Assembly (NCBI RefSeq): GCF_000275825.1
Contig: NZ_JH719942.1
Coordinates: 996,988 to 1,060,987 of the forward strand
Direction: 5' to 3'
Source: Saprospira grandis DSM 2844
GTDB lineage: Bacteria; Bacteroidota; Bacteroidia; Chitinophagales; Saprospiraceae
DNA: 64,000 bases
Shown here: piece after piece, positions 40,725 through 51,705 of the stretch
How positions within the stretch are numbered: the first letter of the stretch is position 1
How the letters are laid out: every line of letters begins with the position of its first letter
Notes under the pieces: model-generated
Database searches by the model: none
Seen by the model: the letters and a program-made list of their open reading frames with translations, nothing else
Told to the model about the DNA's origin: nothing
Made by a program: the position numbers and the translations under genes

Positions 40725-40997
40725 CCTCGGAAGGGGTTACCCTACCCCTCAAGAGGGGTTACCCTACCCCTCAAGAGGGGTTACCCTACCCCTCAAGAGG
40801 GGTCACTCTACCCATCGGAAGGGGTTTCCCTACCCCTCAAGAGGGGTCACTCTACCCCTCGGGAGGGGTCACTCTATCCCTCGGGAGGGGTTACTCTACC
40901 CATCGGGAGGGGCTGCCCTACCCCTCAAGAGGGGTTTCCCTACCCATCGGGAGGGGTTACTCTACCCCTCAGGAGGGGTTACTCTACCCCTCGGGAG
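40725..40997. repeat. Tandem array of ~12 copies of a 22-bp hairpin-forming unit (consensus tacccctcaagaggggttaccc)
   Basis: Direct reading: …gaggggttaccctacccctcaagaggggttaccctacccctcaagaggggttaccctacccctc… with point variants (ggtcactctacccatcgg etc.). Each unit carries gaggggt/acccctc complementary arms. Confidence 0.9.
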
Positions 40998-41341
40998 GAA
41001 AATACTAGCAATAAAGAGGGGGAGATGGATTTAAAGACAATATAAAAACAGTCATTTACTCCTTTACATCACTACAGCTGAGCAACTTTTACAACCTTCT
41101 GACTGATAGCAATGCGCAGGCCCTCAGCTAGAAATAGTCCTTAAAACAACTGCTAACAAGAGCCAAAACTCTATAAAACACAAAAAAATAGCCTATTAAA
41201 GTATTTTTTATTAGTTATAACTTGCATTATAAAATTATTTACCCTATGTTTATAACGCAAATAACGCAAGAGCACATTGCTTTTACTAAAGAGCTCTAGT
41301 TGTTAGACATCTAATTCTTAATCAAATAAATACCTAGTACT

Positions 41342-43094: not shown

Positions 43095-43183
43095 GCCCAG
43101 GTGGTGGAATTGGTAGACACGCTACTTTGAGGGGGTAGTGCCTAATTACAGGCGTGCAAGTTCGACTCTTGTTCTGGGCACCA
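43095..43183 (+). tRNA. tRNA-Leu (anticodon GAG), type II with long variable arm, encoded CCA
   Basis: Acceptor GCCCAGG/TCTGGGC. D-loop with GG. Anticodon stem CTACT/GGTAG with loop TTGAGGG (U33, GAG, G37). Variable arm GCCT-AATTAC-AGGC. T-arm GCAAG-TTCGACT-CTTGT. Discriminator A plus CCA. Confidence 0.85.
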
Positions 43184-43187
43184 AAAA

Positions 43188-43221
43188 ATCTCGATATCGG
43201 AAGATGTCGGGATTTTTTTTT
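43188..43221 (+). terminator. Rho-independent terminator immediately after tRNA-Leu
   Basis: atctcgatatc-ggaa-gatgtcgggat forms an 11-bp stem with two G-U pairs, followed by T8-9. Confidence 0.6.
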
Positions 43222-43260
43222 GTAGCTTATAGTCATTCCTAAACCAAAGACTTCTAGTCA

Positions 43261-44478
43261 ATGACTAAAAACTACCAATCACTGCTACGGGCAGTAGAAC
43301 GAGAGCGAGAATTTCATAATAAGACAGCTAGGATTACAGGGGCGAACTACAATGTCTTTAGTCTATTGCAATTAGATCGAAAAGAAGATAAACTACATAG
43401 TCCCTTTATAGCGGATTTACTCCATCCTCAGGGCAGTCATCAGCAGGGGACAGTATTCTTAAAGGCCTTTATAAACATGCTCACTCAGAAATTTGAGGAT
43501 CTATCTAAACTAAGCAACTTAAAAGCAGAGCGGACTCGAGTCAATACTGAGGAATTTATAGGCAAAGTGAGAGCAAATGAAGGTGGTCGCATAGATATCT
43601 ATATTACAGATGGGCTACACACTATTGCAATCGAGAATAAAATTGATGCGGACGATCAAGAGAATCAACTATTGCGTTATGCTAATCATTTGAAAGGGAA
43701 AGAGAATACGGCTTTGCTCTACTTAAATCTAAAAGGGAGAGCTCCTTCAGAAAAGAGTACTAAGAGAAAATTAGTAGAAGGTACAGACTACTATGGGCTT
43801 TCTTATCAGAAAGATATTTTAACTTGGTTAGAGGACTGCAAGCGTATTGCAGTAGATCTACCTATTCTTAGAGAATGTTTGAAGCAGTATATTAACACTA
43901 TAAAAGAACTTTGCGGAATGAGCCTAAACGAAGACAAAAAGAAAGAAATAGAAAAGCTTATTAAGCATCATTTTGGGGCCGCATTAGATATTGCCACTCA
44001 TTTTGAAGCAGTTCGGCTTCAAATTATAAATGATTTTAGGATAGACCTTATTGACTACTTAACAGAAAACCTAGATAGTGCCATTTATCGGGTAGAGCCT
44101 TGCTTCGAGATTAACGCTAAGTACTCTAAAATTGTAATTCTGCCGCATAAAGAAAAGCACCCTTATAAACTTTACTTTAACATTGAATCCTTTAGTGCTG
44201 AGGGGTATTGGGGAGGCGACCTATATGTTGGTCTTCTCGCTAACCCTGGTCGTGGAGGCCTCAGTGACCAAGAAAAAAAAATTCTATCGGGAGAAGGCTT
44301 AAAGGGCTGGCTTCCTAAAAAGGAAAACTTAAATGTAAACACCAAAGAAGAAGCAACACTCAAACAGCTTAGTCAAGAAAAAAGTCGTAAGCAGCTAGTA
44401 GAACAACTAGGGCTACAGTGCGTACAGTTTATCCAAGAGCATGAGGACTTGCTAAAAAATTTATACAGGAAGTTTTAG
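43261..44478 (+). CDS. PD-(D/E)xK nuclease-family protein (PDDEXK_4-like N-domain plus uncharacterised C-domain)
   Basis: N-domain …EDKLHSPFIADLLHPQGSHQQGTVFLKAFINML… then GGRIDIYITDGLHTIAIENKIDADDQENQLLRYANHL (D…E-N-K catalytic-core pattern). AT-rich codon usage unlike the flanking genome. Confidence 0.55.
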   Translation: MTKNYQSLLRAVEREREFHNKTARITGANYNVFSLLQLDRKEDKLHSPFIADLLHPQGSHQQGTVFLKAFINMLTQKFEDLSKLSNLKAERTRVNTEEFIGKVRANEGGRIDIYITDGLHTIAIENKIDADDQENQLLRYANHLKGKENTALLYLNLKGRAPSEKSTKRKLVEGTDYYGLSYQKDILTWLEDCKRIAVDLPILRECLKQYINTIKELCGMSLNEDKKKEIEKLIKHHFGAALDIATHFEAVRLQIINDFRIDLIDYLTENLDSAIYRVEPCFEINAKYSKIVILPHKEKHPYKLYFNIESFSAEGYWGGDLYVGLLANPGRGGLSDQEKKILSGEGLKGWLPKKENLNVNTKEEATLKQLSQEKSRKQLVEQLGLQCVQFIQEHEDLLKNLYRKF

Positions 44479-44588
44479 GCTGCGAGGCAGAGGAAGTAAG
44501 CTAGGAAATAAAAAAGCATTATGGATTAGTACTTAAGCTCTAATTAAACGTATCTTACTTCTAATTAAAACACCTAATATAGAAACAA

Positions 44589-46046
44589 ATGATTCGCATA
44601 AATCATATACATATAGATGGGTTTAAAGACTCTGAAGACCAAAAAGATATCCAACTAGCCCGTGGTCCTATTACAGTTATTTATGGAGAGAATGGCTCTG
44701 GTAAAACCACTTTACTTCAACTGCTTTTTGCCTTTCTTAACAAAGATGAACTTACACTCAACCGTCAACAAGTACAAAAAATAGAAATTAACTACACAAT
44801 TGACGGCCTAGAGAAAGTAGCCTCTGCTAAAAACATAAGTACCTGGACAGTAGGTTTTGAATGGAATAACTGGGAAGAGCTCACACAAATCAAGAGTATC
44901 TTTCTAAGCGTTATGAGAAGTTCTAATGAAAGCAAAACAAGAGCAACACACGATAACCAACACTTTATTTTAGGTGATTTTTCGGATGAACGAGACTTAA
45001 GAGAAACGCTCAAAAAACTAGAACAACTACTTTTTGAGGCTAATAAAGAGCAATATCTTGGTGTACTTCATAGCTCTATACGGAAAATAAGATTAGCTAT
45101 AGATGATTTTTATCATAATTACAAAATGGATTTCAAGGGAGCCTCTCCTAAAAAATTACTAGAGATTCTAAATCAATTAGATTTACTGATTAGTATTGCT
45201 TCTAAAAAGGGAAGCCAAGAATTCAGTTCAAAATTGCAAGAATTAAGTAGTAAGCTTCAGCATTTTTGTACCATGAGCGGCTATTCAGATCTTGAACCAA
45301 TTAAGTTTGAGGATGATATGAGCCATATTCCTCACTATAATGTTCATCAACTATCTGCTAACGAAATCAGTAAAATTCTGACTAACTATTATAAAGCAGG
45401 GCAAGAACAAATTAGAGAAAATATCAACTTAGCCTTTTTTGACACTATTGAAAAAGCAATAGAAATAGAGACTGAAAAAAATAGCTTTGATCTTCCTAAG
45501 GATTTTAATACCCGTATTGCTAGACATGCTGACTATATTCTTCAAGCAGTACAAATTCACACATCAAGTCTAGCTGATAAAGTTCGTATGTTCTTAAAGG
45601 AAGGGGAAAATGCTCCTATCCCAGATAGTAAAATATTTAGAGCTCTTCTTCTTGAAGTGCTAAAAAGTGCTGAGCAAAAAAATCTAAAGCTTGAGGCTAT
45701 AGAAAAACTTCAAGAAGTTTTCAATTCCCATTTGTACAAAGGCAAAAAACTAATTATAACAAAAGAACAAGCCTATATCTCTATAAAAGAAAATAGAGGG
45801 CATACACTCCAAGAGTTATCAAGTGGTGAAAAGCAACTACTAAATATATTGACTTTCATTCTTTTATTGAGTAGAGAACGAAAACTCATCCTAATTGATG
45901 AGCCCGAAATCTCTCTTAACATAAAATGGCAGCGCAACTTCATTCCACTCTTGCAAGAGCTTAATCAAGATGCACAAATCATTGTTGCTTCTCATAGCCC
46001 TTCTATTGCGTACAAAAAAACAGAAACACTAGTAGAGTTGCTCTAA
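44589..46046 (+). CDS. ABC/SMC-like (AAA_15/21-type) ATPase, AriA-like
   Basis: Walker A IYGENGSGKTTLLQLLFAF near the N-terminus. Long helical insert. Signature LSSGEKQLLNILTFILL. Walker B KLILIDEPEISLN. H-loop IVASHSPS. Confidence 0.6.
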   Translation: MIRINHIHIDGFKDSEDQKDIQLARGPITVIYGENGSGKTTLLQLLFAFLNKDELTLNRQQVQKIEINYTIDGLEKVASAKNISTWTVGFEWNNWEELTQIKSIFLSVMRSSNESKTRATHDNQHFILGDFSDERDLRETLKKLEQLLFEANKEQYLGVLHSSIRKIRLAIDDFYHNYKMDFKGASPKKLLEILNQLDLLISIASKKGSQEFSSKLQELSSKLQHFCTMSGYSDLEPIKFEDDMSHIPHYNVHQLSANEISKILTNYYKAGQEQIRENINLAFFDTIEKAIEIETEKNSFDLPKDFNTRIARHADYILQAVQIHTSSLADKVRMFLKEGENAPIPDSKIFRALLLEVLKSAEQKNLKLEAIEKLQEVFNSHLYKGKKLIITKEQAYISIKENRGHTLQELSSGEKQLLNILTFILLLSRERKLILIDEPEISLNIKWQRNFIPLLQELNQDAQIIVASHSPSIAYKKTETLVELL

Positions 46047-46058
46047 ACCCTTAGTTTG

Positions 46059-47003
46059 ATGATCTCAAATGATATTCACGAATGTTTAGCTGCTGCAATT
46101 ATGGCTGGCAGTCCCACCATCCTCATAGAAGGAAAAGACGATGAAGAAGTCTATACCAATATTAGCAATGAACTAGGGCTAACATTAGAGTTTCTCCCCA
46201 TAGATTTTGTAGACACAACTGGCTATGGGGTTTTGGGTAATTGTGATCAGCTTGTAGCTAGCCTAAGGGACTTAGACAACAGCTGTAAAGACCCTAAATG
46301 GATCAAATTTATTGGTGGAGTTATAGACCTAGATAGTCGCAGCTTTGCCAATCAAATTAGTAGGCCGCCTAGGAATCTATACATATTAAAGATGTATTCT
46401 ATTGAGTCCTACTTTGTTAATCAGGAGAGCTTTATTGCCGTATTCAATAGTCTCAACTCTGCACCTATTTCCAATGCGCTTAAAGACAGTTACTACAATG
46501 ATTTTAATAGCTTCTTTGCCCCTGTAGAAGAGGAGCTTTTTTGGGTGGCTACAGAGGCGCTACAAAATGTTTGTGGGGCTAATCCTAGTCCTGAAATTAC
46601 ATACGGTGTTGACTTTAGTTTTAAAGGCTATATGCAAGCGCCTTCAGTCAACCCTAAGCGGCAGATAGTTGATCGGATTCAAGCTAAAAAGGAAGCTTTA
46701 AGAAGTTGGTTAAACAATGCTTTTAGTACTGCCGTTATACAAAAACAGCTCATCATTAAGGGGAAATGGTGGCTATCCGTTTTTTTAGATATTATTGTTG
46801 AATATGCTAAAAAGCTAGAAGCAGACTGCAGTTTCGCCCCTTCTGGTCCTTGTCGCTATTGTGCTATAGAAGATAAAGGTAACTGTCAATTCAAACTCAA
46901 AGTTAAAAGTCCAACGCCAGCGGCACTTAAGGCAATGGCCTATCAGACCTCCGTATCTGATCAAGATCCTGGGCTCTGCAATTTTCTGGAGTTGTTTAAT
47001 TAA
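46059..47003 (+). CDS. Small TOPRIM-like protein (DUF4435/AriB-like) coupled to the upstream ATPase
   Basis: PTILIEGKDDEEVY (TOPRIM Glu in an hEG motif) and, ~65 aa later, IGGVIDLDS (DxD). 12-bp gap from the upstream ATPase. The track ORF begins at TTG 46056; ATG 46059 preferred. Confidence 0.5.
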   Translation: MISNDIHECLAAAIMAGSPTILIEGKDDEEVYTNISNELGLTLEFLPIDFVDTTGYGVLGNCDQLVASLRDLDNSCKDPKWIKFIGGVIDLDSRSFANQISRPPRNLYILKMYSIESYFVNQESFIAVFNSLNSAPISNALKDSYYNDFNSFFAPVEEELFWVATEALQNVCGANPSPEITYGVDFSFKGYMQAPSVNPKRQIVDRIQAKKEALRSWLNNAFSTAVIQKQLIIKGKWWLSVFLDIIVEYAKKLEADCSFAPSGPCRYCAIEDKGNCQFKLKVKSPTPAALKAMAYQTSVSDQDPGLCNFLELFN

Positions 47004-47049
47004 AAAGCAAAGCCGCCAGCTTATTTATATAAGCTAACGACTTTATACC

Positions 47050-47562: not shown

Positions 47563-48254
47563 ATTTTATGTTGGCAGTCTCCTTTTTCGTTAATAATTTC
47601 ATGCTCCCCCGCTTGGTTCTGCACCAATGCAAAGCCATTGTAAAAGGGCTCTAGCTGCAAAAACCGACGATTATATACGGGCCGCCCCGCCAAATCGATA
47701 TGCAACCAACCCGCCTCATCTTTGGCCCGAGCAAATCCTTTGTGAAAAACATCTAACTCTAGATAGCGATAAGGATGTAAGGCCCTGCCCTGAGAATCAA
47801 TATGCAAACAATAACCATCGGCCTGACGAACACAGGCGTAGCCATCTCTAAAGTCGCCCGCATAGCAATAACGCGCCCCATAAAGCGGATCTCCCTGCAG
47901 ATCAATATGGAAGTATTCGCCGCCTTTTCGGACCGTGCAAATGTCTTGCTGATAGTTGCCACACCAGTCATAACGCTCCCCATAAATGGCATGTCCTTTT
48001 GTGTCTATATGAAACTGCCCTTGCTCAGAACAGACCGCCGCCCGATCACAATAATAACCAAAGGTCCGCAAATACCGCTGAGGGTATATAGCCACTCCAG
48101 TTGTATCAATATGATAACTACCACTATGATCTTCTACAGGCGCCAAACCCGGCGCATGAAACTTTAATACCGACTTAAAAGGGCCAAAAATAGCCCGCTC
48201 TTCCAAGCAAAATCCATTGCCCTCCGCATTGACTTTTATGTTTTTCCAATTCAT
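47559..48254 (-). CDS. WG-repeat-containing protein
   Basis: Five ~38-aa repeats of the form W/F/Y-x-HID-x-x-G-x-x-(V/I/L)Y-x-x-RY…F-x-x-G-(F/Y)A-x-V (e.g. WLHIDLAGRPVYNRRFLQLEPFYNGFALVQNQAG). 4-bp overlaps with both neighbours. Confidence 0.5.
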   Translation of the reverse strand: MNWKNIKVNAEGNGFCLEERAIFGPFKSVLKFHAPGLAPVEDHSGSYHIDTTGVAIYPQRYLRTFGYYCDRAAVCSEQGQFHIDTKGHAIYGERYDWCGNYQQDICTVRKGGEYFHIDLQGDPLYGARYCYAGDFRDGYACVRQADGYCLHIDSQGRALHPYRYLELDVFHKGFARAKDEAGWLHIDLAGRPVYNRRFLQLEPFYNGFALVQNQAGEHEIINEKGDCQHKI

Positions 48255-49222
48255 CTTTTCTCAAATATCAATATAGATTGTAAATCATTTAAGGGGCGCT
48301 TTTCTAAATAAATAAAGCCTGTTTGCTCCGCCAATTTCCGATAGGCCGCTAAGGTCCGCTCTTGGCTCTTACAAATGGCCAACATGTTCAAACTAAGCAG
48401 CTCGGCCCCATCGGCTAGCTGCTCTTTTAGGATTTCTAAGATATACAAGCGCCCTCCTTTTGGCAAGGCGGCATAAACGTTTTCCAATATTTTCAAGGCC
48501 GCTTCATCTGGCCAATCATGTAGTACTCTAGCCAGAAAAATATGCTCGGCGACTTGGGGAATAGGCGCAAAAAAATCTACAGGAATAGGCCGAAAAGGCA
48601 AGTCTCCCGCTGGCAATAAAGCCAATACCTTGGGCTTGTCTAATAAATAAAATGTAGGCCCAGGATAAACTCTCGCCAAGTCCTTGAGCAAAGCCCCCAA
48701 ACCGCCGCCAAGGTCCATTACAGCTTTGGCTTCCGACAAATCTAATTGCTCAGCCAAATTTGCATAATCATCCCGCGCATACTCATTCATGGCCAAATGA
48801 TACACCCGATTGCTCTCGGGATGCTCATCCAAATAATCAAAAAAAGGCTGCCCGTAAATATGGTCAAAGGCAGGTTTGTCTTCTAAAACACTATAGGCCA
48901 AATGCTGCCAAGCCCGCAAATGCTCCTCCCCCCAAAGCAAACAAGCATACTTCAAACTTTTAGGATGTTCCTCCGCCAGCTGCGCCCCTTTTTTAGCCAA
49001 AATATACTGCCCATTTTCTTCTGTTAAGGCCTCCAATTGCTCCAATGCCGCCAATAATAACTGCAAACTTGCCCGCTTGGCCCCTAGCTTTTCGGCCAAA
49101 TTGGCCAAACTAAGCGGCCCCTCCCAAAGCAGATCAAATACCCCCAACTGACAGGCGGTCCGCAAGGGCAAATAATGCCAATAACTGCTAAAACTATTCT
49201 TCAACTCCTGACTAATACTCAT
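48251..49222 (-). CDS. Class I SAM-dependent O-methyltransferase (dimerisation domain plus MTase domain)
   Basis: VMDLGGGLGALLKDLARVYPGPTFYLLDKPKV (motif I) and overall plant-type OMT architecture. The track ORF runs to 49294 through a REP copy; start placed at ATG 49220-49222 (MSISQELKN…). Confidence 0.75.
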   Translation of the reverse strand: MSISQELKNSFSSYWHYLPLRTACQLGVFDLLWEGPLSLANLAEKLGAKRASLQLLLAALEQLEALTEENGQYILAKKGAQLAEEHPKSLKYACLLWGEEHLRAWQHLAYSVLEDKPAFDHIYGQPFFDYLDEHPESNRVYHLAMNEYARDDYANLAEQLDLSEAKAVMDLGGGLGALLKDLARVYPGPTFYLLDKPKVLALLPAGDLPFRPIPVDFFAPIPQVAEHIFLARVLHDWPDEAALKILENVYAALPKGGRLYILEILKEQLADGAELLSLNMLAICKSQERTLAAYRKLAEQTGFIYLEKRPLNDLQSILIFEKR

Positions 49223-49246
49223 CTTTTTCTGTTCTACATGATTTGA

Positions 49247-49372
49247 TTTTGGGGCCTCCTGCCTACGGCAGGCGCTACGCTTTGGGGCTCGCAAGTCTGC
49301 TCGGCCCTTCGGCGGCTTTGCCGCCTCGGTCTGGCCTAACGGCCACCCCGCCGCATCGCTAGGCCAAAAAAG
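49247..49372. repeat. REP/MITE-like element inserted inside the operon between the radical SAM and OMT genes
   Basis: ttttggggcctcctgcctacggcaggcgctacgctttggggctcgcaagtctgctcggcccttcggcgg … ggccaccccgccgcatcgctaggcc. Confidence 0.8.
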
Positions 49373-49403
49373 GCCTGCGGCTGAGCTAGAGAGCTAAAAC
49401 CGC

Positions 49404-50429
49404 CTACTTCCGCATCGTACAGCCTTGGCAAAGGGGCTTTTCCTTATAATTTTCAACCAACTCTAAGTAGGCTTTGCTTTGCAGGACCTCCACAAGGCTG
49501 CGGTCCTGAATATTACCAAAGTCGCCTAAGGCTTGCCGCTGCTCATCAGGGGCGCAGCAAGGCGATATTTTCCCCGTGGCCGAGACCCAAAGTTCTTTAT
49601 TTAGAAACGGACAGTCGTAGTCTTCCGGGACCGCCTCTGCTGCGCCTGCAGTTAGCGGGACAATATTTTCTAGTAAAACAGCTTTGCCATTGGGCAGTAA
49701 ATATTGGTCTCTAGCCGCATAGGCCTCTTCTACATATTGGTTCCATTGGGCCATGCTTTGGGCATCCTTACGGAAAGATAAGTCCTTGATTTCATCAAAA
49801 TGATCCCACAACTGATGCCCTTTTACCCGATCTACGCCAAGACTAGCCGCTAGCTTAATAATATCGGCCAGTTCCTGCATATTGTTTTGCATAAAGGTCA
49901 ATTGGAAACTTACTCGGCAATAATAGCCCGTTTCTGCAAAATGCTGGTCTCGTACAGCCACAAAGCGACGGACATGATCTACACACTGCTCAAAGTTAAT
50001 CCCTGGCATGACTTCCTCGGCTGTTTTGGCGGTGGCCGCATTCCAAGAGATTTTAATGTCTGTCGTTTGTGGTACAATCAGTTTGGCCCAAACTTCTACG
50101 GGCTTTTTAGGAAAGGTCCCATTGGTGGTGAGGTTAATTTTGATTCCATACTGCTCACTCAAATCAAAGATTTGCTCAAAGCCTTTATACAGCAAGGGTT
50201 CCCCCATCGTAGAGGGGATAATCTCTTTGACGCCCAAGGCTTGGGCCTGCTCAAAAATCTGGACCACCCACTCAAAAGGCATACGGCGACGCTTGACGCC
50301 CGTGTTTTTATAGAGGTCCGCGATAAATGTACTATAAGGACTATGCTCCTCGCACATAATACAATGCAAGTTGCAATCTTCAGGGTTGGTGTCTATGGTA
50401 ATTCGCCAAAAGTCTTTAGGCTTGGACAT
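49404..50429 (-). CDS. Radical SAM enzyme with C-terminal SPASM/twitch-like auxiliary cluster domain
   Basis: CNLHCIMC (Cx3Cx2C) near the N-terminus. Cys-rich C-terminus CPFLN…GKISPCCAP…CQGCTMRK. Confidence 0.85.
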   Translation of the reverse strand: MSKPKDFWRITIDTNPEDCNLHCIMCEEHSPYSTFIADLYKNTGVKRRRMPFEWVVQIFEQAQALGVKEIIPSTMGEPLLYKGFEQIFDLSEQYGIKINLTTNGTFPKKPVEVWAKLIVPQTTDIKISWNAATAKTAEEVMPGINFEQCVDHVRRFVAVRDQHFAETGYYCRVSFQLTFMQNNMQELADIIKLAASLGVDRVKGHQLWDHFDEIKDLSFRKDAQSMAQWNQYVEEAYAARDQYLLPNGKAVLLENIVPLTAGAAEAVPEDYDCPFLNKELWVSATGKISPCCAPDEQRQALGDFGNIQDRSLVEVLQSKAYLELVENYKEKPLCQGCTMRK

Positions 50430-51705
50430 GCAAAATAGCTTTATACTGTTCTAAAATGGTTGCTGTATGTGTTTTAATGTCAGGGACCTCTCCAGCGGCA
50501 TCATAGAGATAGCCTCTTTGGCCCAATTGCTTCATTTCTTCAGGATGTTGGATGGCCCAGGCCATTTGCTCTTGTAGCGATGGACCATCTCGGTGCTTGA
50601 AGAGCAGGCCATTGACCCCATGCGCTACATATTCCGCCATGCCCCCATAATCTGCCGTGATGACCGGCAAACGGGCCGCCTGCGCCTCATGAATCACCAA
50701 AGGAGAGTTTTCGCCCCAAATAGAAGGGACCACAATGGCATCTACCTGAGCAAAAACCTCTTGGACCAAATCTTCATTGGCATAGCCCCCACAAAATGAA
50801 ATCCGCTGACTTTGCGCTGCGCTCATAGCGCTTAAGGCTTTTTGGCTTTGGCTGTCTTTCCAGCCCCAGATTTTTAACTCTGCCCCTTGCGCTAAGCCCT
50901 TAAAGGCCTCTATGAGTAAGTTGACCCCCTTGGCGGGAATATGCGTGCCGATATACCCAAAGCGAAAAGGTCCAGCTTTACGAGCTGTTTTGGGCGGACT
51001 TAAATAATGCGTCGGAAAGCCATAATCTAGATAACTTACTTTTTCCGCAGGCAAGTTAAAATCATGAATAAAGCGATTCATCAGATAGCGAGAGGGCGCA
51101 ATAAAATGATCGACTAGCCCAATAATTTCTCTTGTTTTCTGCATCCGTCGGCCTATCCATCGGCTCCAATAGGCCAGATCTTCGGCTTCTTCTTCTGGAT
51201 GGCCAGAAAAGAGCATTTTGTAGCAAGACTGTGCACATTTTTGGTCCTCTTGGCCCGTACAGAGCTGATAGCAGTTTTGGCCATCAAAGTTGCGCTGTAG
51301 AAACTGACCTCGGGGACACATCAGCCAGAAATCGTGCAAGGTAAAGAGAATGGGCACCCCCGCTTTTTTAAGCGCTTGGACCAAGCCCAAAGACAGATGA
51401 TTAAGATGGCCAATATGAGCCACATCTGGACGGTCTTGGGCCAAAATAGCCGCCAGCTTTTGGTCCACCTGCGGCTGCCAATAGCCATCTTTGTCTCTGG
51501 GCATATTGACCAAATGAAACTCTAGGCCCTGCTCATCTTTAAAAGAACGCAGCTCAAAATCTGGCCGATAAGGTTCCTCCTCTCGGCTGAAAATGGTGAG
51601 CCGATGCCCCTGCCGATGCAGTTCTTGGCAGAGGCTCTGGCTATAGACTTCGGAGCCTGCACTGTAGCCCGGCGGATAGCCATGGATAATTTTTAAAATG
51701 TGCAT
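50416..51705 (-). CDS. GT-B fold glycosyltransferase (family 4-like)
   Basis: C-terminal GT4 donor-binding region …VVPSIWGENSPLVIHEAQAARLPVITADYGGMAEYVAHGVNGLLF… (E-x7-E-like). First gene of the operon, 14-bp overlap with the rSAM gene. Confidence 0.8.
   Translation of the reverse strand: MHILKIIHGYPPGYSAGSEVYSQSLCQELHRQGHRLTIFSREEEPYRPDFELRSFKDEQGLEFHLVNMPRDKDGYWQPQVDQKLAAILAQDRPDVAHIGHLNHLSLGLVQALKKAGVPILFTLHDFWLMCPRGQFLQRNFDGQNCYQLCTGQEDQKCAQSCYKMLFSGHPEEEAEDLAYWSRWIGRRMQKTREIIGLVDHFIAPSRYLMNRFIHDFNLPAEKVSYLDYGFPTHYLSPPKTARKAGPFRFGYIGTHIPAKGVNLLIEAFKGLAQGAELKIWGWKDSQSQKALSAMSAAQSQRISFCGGYANEDLVQEVFAQVDAIVVPSIWGENSPLVIHEAQAARLPVITADYGGMAEYVAHGVNGLLFKHRDGPSLQEQMAWAIQHPEEMKQLGQRGYLYDAAGEVPDIKTHTATILEQYKAILHVQA

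Follow-up and report, generated by a model that had tools for sequence, protein, structure and literature searches.

Gene organization of the locus

The stretch of DNA analysed here (the window) comprises 64,000 nt of the genome of Saprospira grandis DSM 2844, a predatory, gliding member of the Bacteroidota (NZ_JH719942.1, positions 996,988 to 1,060,987, forward strand). It contains two co-oriented genes that a preliminary description had likened to the anti-phage system PARIS (AriA/AriB). The first codes for an ATPase of the ATP-binding cassette (ABC)/SMC type and the second for a smaller, predicted TOPRIM protein. Coordinates below are those of the window and residue numbers those of the respective protein.

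44589..46046, plus strand: ariA-like gene, ABC/SMC-type sensor ATPase, 485 amino acids (aa), ATG start; identified by open reading frame (ORF), Pfam, PADLOC, PDB and Foldseek
44685..44708, plus strand: Walker A (P-loop) GENGSGKT, residues 33-40; G33, N35, G36, G38, K39 and T40 invariant in 62 relatives
44919..44984, plus strand: predicted disordered loop, residues 111-132; predicted local distance difference test (pLDDT) <50, located by alignment to AriA
45225-45260, plus strand: duplication in the helical insert, SSKLQ at residues 213 and 220 (SSKLQELSSKLQ), residues 213-224 of the AriA-like protein
45816..45836, plus strand: ABC signature LSSGEKQ, residues 410-416; L410, S411, S412, G413 and E414 invariant; aligns to AriA LSSGERQ
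45888..45908, plus strand: Walker B ILIDEPE, residues 434-440; I436, D437, E438, P439 and E440 invariant; aligns to AriA LIDEPEISL
45987..46004, plus strand: H-loop ASHSPS, residues 467-472; A467, H469 and S470 invariant
46056..47003, plus strand: ariB-like gene, predicted nuclease effector of the TOPRIM (DUF4435) type; 315 aa with TTG 46056 as start, 314 aa with ATG 46059
46128..46142, plus strand: TOPRIM glutamate motif E25-G26-K-D-D29, within TILIEGKDDEEVY (residue 21 on); E25, G26 and D29 invariant in 92/92; aligns to AriB VEGRHD
46326..46334, plus strand: TOPRIM D91-L-D93, within VIDLDS (residue 89 on); D91 and D93 invariant in 92/92; aligns to AriB CDRE
46395..46406, plus strand: Y114-S-I-E117; Y114 and E117 invariant, S115 in 91/92; aligns to AriB HSLENYF
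46827..46886, plus strand: C258-x7-C266-x2-C269-x7-C277, a motif of four cysteines in the C-terminal domain of the AriB-like protein; from the clade alignment

Both ORFs proved to be as first described (44589-46046, 485 aa; 46056-47003, 315 aa), and every motif then listed was found in its place: GENGSGKT at residue 33, LSSGEKQ at 410, ILIDEPE at 434 and ASHSPS at 467 of the ATPase, TILIEGKDDEEVY at 21 and VIDLDS at 89 of the small protein. The predicted masses of 56.0 and 35.2 kDa agree with the earlier estimate of about 55 and 35 kDa, sizes that match AriA and AriB. The start of the second gene needs a small correction. An in-frame ATG (46059) lies one codon past the TTG at 46056, and the gene call in a related strain begins at the equivalent of this ATG, which is the more likely start. 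The spacer between the genes is accordingly 9-12 nt, with 12 nt applying when the ATG is used. The 315 residues and the 12-bp gap given previously are each correct but belong to different starts, the former requiring the TTG and the latter the ATG (314 aa). In the helical insert, the SSKLQ repeat of the ATPase can probably be put down to a trivial duplication of a heptad.

The ATPase affiliates with AriA

The 485-aa protein matched the Pfam families AAA_21 (83.6 bits, 3.4e-23) and AAA_15 (67.1 bits, 2.8e-18), both above their cut-offs, as well as SMC_N. Its top PADLOC model was AriA (PDLC04164, 3.1e-31), ahead of PtuA, mad3, NsnB, AbiLi and GajA. In a single-sequence search of all PDB chains, the best match was AriA from the PARIS complex (8v45/8ux9, 4.3e-13). 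An alignment of 62 relatives (A2) served for profile construction and for the assessment of conservation; its profile retrieved AriA from the PDB with an E-value of 2.8e-27 over chain residues 19-439, followed by the retron/Septu PtuA family at 4.8e-11.

An AlphaFold2 model of the ATPase (pLDDT 84.4, predicted template modelling score (pTM) 0.71) consists of N- and C-terminal ATPase lobes with helices at approximately residues 134-379 between them. The helical insert, measured from Walker A to the signature motif, spans about 270 aa. In a Foldseek search of the PDB with this model the first 14 matches were all AriA chains (2.4e-12 to 1.6e-10); PtuA (7.4e-9) and then the heads of SMC, cohesin and condensin followed, and transporters were absent from the top 50 matches. 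The preliminary description had named a grouping with transport-type ABC proteins as the outcome that would speak against an AriA-like ATPase; the protein grouped with AriA and then with PtuA, SMC and Rad50, not with transporters.

The catalytic residues are conserved throughout. In the 62-sequence alignment the Walker A lysine K39, the signature, the Walker B residues D437/E438 and the H-loop histidine H469 are invariant. The Walker A lysine carries the number 39 in both this protein and E. coli AriA, where the exchange K39A prevents both the binding of Ocr and the release of AriB (PMC11464382), and E438 corresponds to AriA E393, whose exchange to glutamine abolishes hydrolysis and defence (PMC10802264). 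Residues R116/R119 in the central pore of AriA have been implicated in trigger binding and are poorly conserved among homologues (Burman et al., PMC11464382). Residues 111-132 of the S. grandis ATPase are equivalent in position to the R116/R119 segment and are not conserved in the clade alignment. Disordered and variable as it is in model and alignment, this loop fits the reported variation of pore residues among homologues and is a candidate trigger-contact loop.

The small protein is a divergent AriB

For the small protein, the Pfam matches at E ≤ 1 were restricted to DUF4435, DUF3226 and OrgC, and PADLOC assigned it to AriB (1.8e-8). A single-sequence search of the PDB yielded nothing relevant; AriB was reached only by the clade profile. 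A word-indexed homologue search returned three near-identical proteins, one of which is named 'DUF4435 domain-containing protein [Saprospira grandis]' by NCBI. An exhaustive search of 1.8 billion representative proteins with HMMER recovered 168 full-length relatives of approximately 300 aa at E ≤ 1e-3, the nearest of which beyond its own cluster is just 29% identical.

From these relatives an alignment of 92 sequences (A1) was built, in which E25, G26, D29, D91, D93, Y114, E117, C266 and C277 are invariant (92/92). Searched against the PDB, the profile of this alignment matched AriB and no other protein (8ux9_A, 4.9e-4; 8v46_D, 1.1e-3). PADLOC AriB was matched by 82 of the 92 clade members and Pfam DUF4435 at E ≤ 1e-3 by 58. 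The AlphaFold2 model of the small protein (pLDDT 93.7, pTM 0.91) pointed to the same family: Foldseek ranked two AriB chains first, aligned over the full length with E-values of 3e-6 and 5.8e-6 and a probability of 1.0; the match after them had an E-value of 0.05.

The metal-binding residues published for AriB, namely E26, D30, D88, E90 and E122 (PMC11464382), align with E25, D29, D91, D93 and E117 of the small protein, the position of E90 being occupied by an aspartate, a conservative change. Among these, E26A (PMC11464382) and E90A (PMC10802264) abolish defence by AriB, and the PDB chain 8v46 bears E90A at the position aligned to D93. The small protein is a divergent AriB with the two-domain fold of AriB and its five acidic TOPRIM residues. 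The initial assignment to DUF4435/AriB thus held, with a DUF4435 score below the 27-bit threshold of the Pfam family. An absent TOPRIM fold or DUF4435 match had been named as grounds for abandoning that assignment; what was found is a DUF4435 match below threshold together with a fold for which AriB ranks first.

Linkage and distribution of the gene pair

Related loci were seeded with the ATPase alignment A2, and all their ORFs were scanned with hidden Markov models (HMMs) built from A1 and A2. Wherever a complete locus carried a strong match to the AriA clade, a gene of the AriB clade lay directly downstream (16/16). AriA scores were at least 344 bits, and at least 415 bits with the exception of locus L060; AriB scores were at least 220 bits and, again except for L060, above 300 bits. 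Half of these loci are distinct genomic ones: a metagenome-assembled genome of the Bacteroidales, contig L002, Virgibacillus, Fredinandcohnia, Pseudoalteromonas, Duganella, Massilia and Rhodoferax. The other eight are viral or prophage contigs from IMG/VR, and an additional locus is truncated where its contig ends. Linked loci with a named host span Bacteroidota, Bacillota and Proteobacteria. The same gene arrangement occurs on metagenome contig L133 (573-2990), which derives from a related Saprospira strain. Since the adjacency of ariA and ariB is fixed while the flanking genes vary between loci, the pair represents a self-contained, horizontally mobile two-gene module.

More distant relatives were also encountered. 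Among the IMG/VR contigs L061-L131, 45 viral or prophage contigs encode a weaker AriA-like ATPase (79-134 bits) with a weakly AriB-like gene directly downstream; these pairs presumably come from other PARIS clades. Another 27 IMG/VR contigs carry a distant AriA-like ATPase for which an AriB-like partner was not detectable, pointing to effectors of another kind or to AriB clades of greater divergence.

Assignment to PARIS and proposed mechanism

The PARIS reading of the preliminary description is supported by matches that place AriA and AriB first, by the conservation of the catalytic residues and by the linkage in 16 of 16 loci. The HMM search proposed there gave 83.6 bits for AAA_21, 67.1 bits for AAA_15 and 21.2 bits for DUF4435. 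That the 485-aa and the 314/315-aa proteins are a homologous AriA/AriB pair can be stated with high confidence. It is reasonably likely, by analogy, that the pair works by the full mechanism described in E. coli. Homology and mechanism taken together, we consider it very probable that the locus is an anti-phage module of the PARIS family, belonging to a divergent, horizontally mobile clade and residing in a defence islet next to a tRNA-Leu gene.

In E. coli PARIS, a hexamer of AriA sequesters AriB until a trigger such as Ocr or Ptr causes its release (PMC11464382, PMC10802264), and tRNA cleavage, translation arrest and abortive infection ensue (PMC11464382, PMC12409363). By analogy, an AriA oligomer of S. 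grandis (in E. coli a hexamer with up to three AriB monomers) would bind and silence AriB (PMC11464382, PMC10802264, PMC12409363). Binding of a phage protein to AriA, exemplified by Ocr in E. coli, would then release AriB in an ATP-dependent manner. The freed AriB would dimerize and, with Mg2+, cut host RNA, most likely specific tRNAs. Such cleavage would stop translation and abort the infection. E. coli is no guide to the trigger and the RNA target of the Saprospira clade: the pore loop is variable, and K60/K64, with which E. coli AriB touches the anticodon loop of the tRNA, appear to lack counterparts in the clade. The preliminary description, which spoke of a candidate abortive-infection module triggered by phage anti-restriction proteins, was overstated here: trigger and abortive phenotype are extrapolated from E. 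coli PARIS.

Several observations count against this assignment. The DUF4435 match of the small protein (21.2 bits, E 2.8e-4) lies under the gathering score of 27 bits. Its sequence similarity to canonical AriB does not extend past the N-terminal 120-170 residues (24% identity over about 138 residues by BLASTP; about 160 residues by profile), and the solved chains are matched with global TM-scores of only approximately 0.5-0.6. A tblastn search of the INPHARED phages with the small protein recovered no relative. Two functionally relevant sites of E. coli AriB appear not to be conserved, both in regions of low alignment confidence: the position of R31, which forms a salt bridge with AriA, is hydrophobic in the clade and E30 in S. 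grandis, and the K60/K64 region aligns to a conserved G..C segment that has no lysines. In the literature, no functional work was found on any member of the Saprospira AriA/AriB clade.

The last of these points concerns selection on ariB and derives from a single strain pair, the window and contig L133. By codon-aware alignment, ariB differs at 32 sites, 8.5 synonymous and 23.5 non-synonymous; the ratio of non-synonymous to synonymous rates (omega) of 0.72 is indistinguishable from neutral evolution (p = 0.35). The encoded proteins are 92% identical, with an insertion of one residue in the cysteine loop. AriA is 98.4% identical between the strains, and its gene shows purifying selection, with an omega of 0.19 that departs from neutrality at p = 4.5e-5. 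The contrast between the two genes is borderline, Fisher's exact test giving p-values of 0.015-0.059 depending on rounding. Neither ORF is disrupted in either strain, and all catalytic and cysteine residues of ariB are kept. The fast change of ariB could mean that constraint is relaxed or that the effector is engaged in an arms race.

A cysteine motif and apparently altered contact residues in the AriB clade

The C-terminal domain of the small protein carries a C-x7-C-x2-C-x7-C motif that is present in 88 of the 92 clade members (C266 and C277 invariant, C258 in 91/92, C269 in 88/92). It was not present in the one AriB of the canonical clade that was compared over its full length (Pseudoalteromonas, L052), and neither zinc nor cysteine is mentioned in two structural papers on PARIS. 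The motif is a putative zinc knuckle; speculatively, it probably binds zinc and serves protein structure or substrate recognition. A further contact site with AriA, R28 of E. coli AriB, corresponds to K27 in S. grandis and is variable across the clade, again in a region of low alignment confidence. Since R31 and K60/K64 appear not to be conserved, both the interface between AriA and AriB and the substrate may differ from those in E. coli.

Along this line, the AriB clade with four cysteines, a D-x-D motif and no equivalents of K60/K64 could be a mechanistically distinct subtype of PARIS. A zinc-binding element in the C-terminal domain might direct the nuclease to a substrate different from the tRNA-Lys/Thr/Asn that E. 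coli AriB cuts, or add a layer of regulation, and the fast evolution of ariB would then be the outcome of an arms race at the effector rather than the sensor, e.g. against phage decoy tRNAs or AriB inhibitors. We regard this as a tentative possibility, and a doubtful one.

The tRNA-adjacent islet and neighbouring genes

The gene pair lies in a region of low GC content that is bordered by a tRNA gene and accompanied by the following features.

43095-43183, plus strand: tRNA-Leu(GAG), directly before the islet
43184..47049, no strand: low-GC islet of 3.9 kb, 36.7% GC against 47-49% in the flanks; from GC content, a context and not a component of the system
43261-44478, plus strand: PDDEXK_4 (PD-(D/E)XK) protein, 405 aa, first gene of the islet, directly upstream of ariA; Pfam 5.5e-40, PADLOC PDC-S26 6.9e-117
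40725-40998: tandem array of a 22-nt unit (CCTCAGGAGGGGTTACCCTACC), 12.5 copies with 83% match, also with a 44-nt period, in a region without a convincing gene
48251-51705, minus strand: gene cluster (O-methyltransferase, radical SAM/SPASM enzyme, GT4 glycosyltransferase) that follows closely downstream of the islet

The islet ends at a convergent histidine-phosphatase (His_Phos) gene. Direct repeats of the 3' end of the tRNA-Leu gene, as expected of att sites, were not found at the far border of the islet, where just short chance repeats occur; likewise, no integrase-like ORF was seen among those inspected between 39.3 and 51.7 kb. On both grounds the islet is not recognizable as an integrative element. 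It is a small, acquired, tRNA-adjacent defence islet without recognizable mobility genes.

PDC-S26 denotes a PADLOC candidate single-gene defence system. The PDC-S26 gene was considered as a third component of PARIS and rejected: none of the other AriA/AriB loci examined has a homologue, which makes the gene an independent neighbour. The cluster at 48251-51705 may be a modification or natural-product cluster. Its GT4 glycosyltransferase weakly matches 'GT4-conflict', a family of conflict systems.

Alternative explanations

A PARIS-derived cassette could be decaying in Saprospira, or be kept there as a selfish addiction module of the toxin-antitoxin type with no current anti-phage function. The near-neutral omega of ariB would fit this, while the same strain pair shows clear constraint on ariA and on the adjacent His_Phos gene, and so would the score of 223 bits that the Saprospira AriB reaches against the HMM of its own clade, other members exceeding 300 bits. 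Moreover, Deep et al. call PARIS equivalent in function to a toxin-antitoxin system of type II (PMC10802264). However, the two reading frames and the catalytic and cysteine residues have persisted in both strains, ariA is under strong purifying selection, and the counts behind the ariB estimate are small (32 differences in a single pair); an arms race would likewise speed up the change of an effector. Decay or addiction is therefore held to be unlikely.

The pair could also belong to a different defence system of an ABC-ATPase with a TOPRIM or OLD-like protein that merely resembles PARIS, for example a split OLD system, AbiL, RloAB or a Septu-like PtuA with another nuclease. The preliminary description had kept another OLD-like split system as its alternative, which is much less supported than PARIS. 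The small protein showed no RloB-type (PF13707) or HNH match, its Pfam matches being limited to the three families named above; ATPase and TOPRIM domain reside on separate proteins, and there was no Pfam match to the OLD-type TOPRIM (PF20469). We consider a system of this kind very improbable.

Lastly, the reading of the ATPase as the nucleotide-binding subunit of an ABC transporter with an unrelated small gene beside it, which draws on public source annotations, a Pfam match to ABC_tran (2.6e-12) and weak NCBIfam matches to many models of transporter nucleotide-binding domains (1e-8 to 1e-15), is effectively refuted, as the NCBIfam matches lie far under their cut-offs (e.g. 55 versus 255 bits) and cover only two short nucleotide-binding segments, some 270 residues of helical insert lie between Walker A and the signature, genes for a permease or a binding protein were not found near the pair, the fold neighbours are AriA, PtuA and SMC proteins and not transporters, and the partner is always AriB-like. 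In public records the ATPase and several homologues carry the label 'ABC-type cobalamin/Fe3+-siderophore transport system, ATPase component'. In view of the PADLOC, PDB and Foldseek results, all with AriA first, and of the sub-cut-off NCBIfam matches, this label is a mis-annotation, and it looks as though it had been propagated among homologues.

Comparison with known systems

Among related ATPase-nuclease systems, the OLD nucleases of class 1 and 2 (6p74, 6nk8) and Gabija GajA differ from the Saprospira pair in that ATPase and TOPRIM domain are fused in them and form two proteins here. Their match to the small protein is limited to the TOPRIM core (121-132 residues), and a Pfam match of the small protein to TOPRIM_OLD was not obtained. 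PtuA of Septu and retron systems is the second-best relative of the ATPase by profile and by fold, within the same AAA_15/21 superfamily. Its partner, however, is an HNH nuclease (PtuB) or a retron rather than a DUF4435/TOPRIM protein, and no HNH gene adjoins the Saprospira pair.

Rule-based detection of PARIS demands at least 32 bits for AAA_15 or at least 27 bits for AAA_21, plus at least 27 bits for DUF4435 (Rousset 2022, PMC9122126). The ATPase passes this rule with both scores and the small protein, at 21.2 bits, does not, so that an annotation using this cut-off would miss the Saprospira locus. The cut-off serves detection and does not reflect a biological property. The AriB clade, with about 170 representatives at 50% clustering, straddles it, some 37 of the 92 sampled members (approximately 40%) reaching 27 bits. 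PARIS has been reported in 5.2% of genomes (PMC9122126), and as the clade straddles the threshold, the prevalence obtained from rule-based scans is probably an underestimate.

The locus adds a PARIS-type module to S. grandis, an organism in which we know of almost no characterized phage-defence biology, and corrects a mis-annotation as a siderophore/cobalamin transporter. With its conserved four cysteines and its apparently altered substrate-contact region, the clade is a reasonable one for the study of AriB target specificity.

The closest characterized system is PARIS of E. coli B185 (PDB: 8ux9, 8v45-8v49). Both systems consist of two co-oriented, tightly coupled genes for proteins of 56 and 35 kDa. 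They have in common an ABC ATPase with a helical or coiled-coil insert and the same catalytic residues (K39 and the Walker B glutamate), an AriB built of an N-terminal TOPRIM and a C-terminal helical domain with five acidic metal-binding positions, and a mobile defence context. As a canonical reference the pair from a Pseudoalteromonas plasmid (L052) was used, whose AriB is 47% identical to an E. coli AriB fragment; relative to it, identity is very low, amounting to 24% across 138 aa for the Saprospira AriB and to 35% across the C-terminal 141 aa for AriA. The second TOPRIM motif is D88-R-E90 (D-x-E) in E. coli and D91-L-D93 (D-x-D) in Saprospira, the C-x7-C-x2-C-x7-C motif of the Saprospira clade is lacking in the canonical Pseudoalteromonas AriB, and R31 and K60/K64 of E. 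coli AriB appear to have no Saprospira counterparts. The hosts differ as well, E. coli PARIS being carried by a P4 satellite and the Saprospira pair by a chromosome of the Bacteroidota. The Saprospira pair leaves the current picture of PARIS unchallenged; it is a divergent addition to a well-characterized family, and its clade may be one of the 11 PARIS clades already described (Burman et al.).

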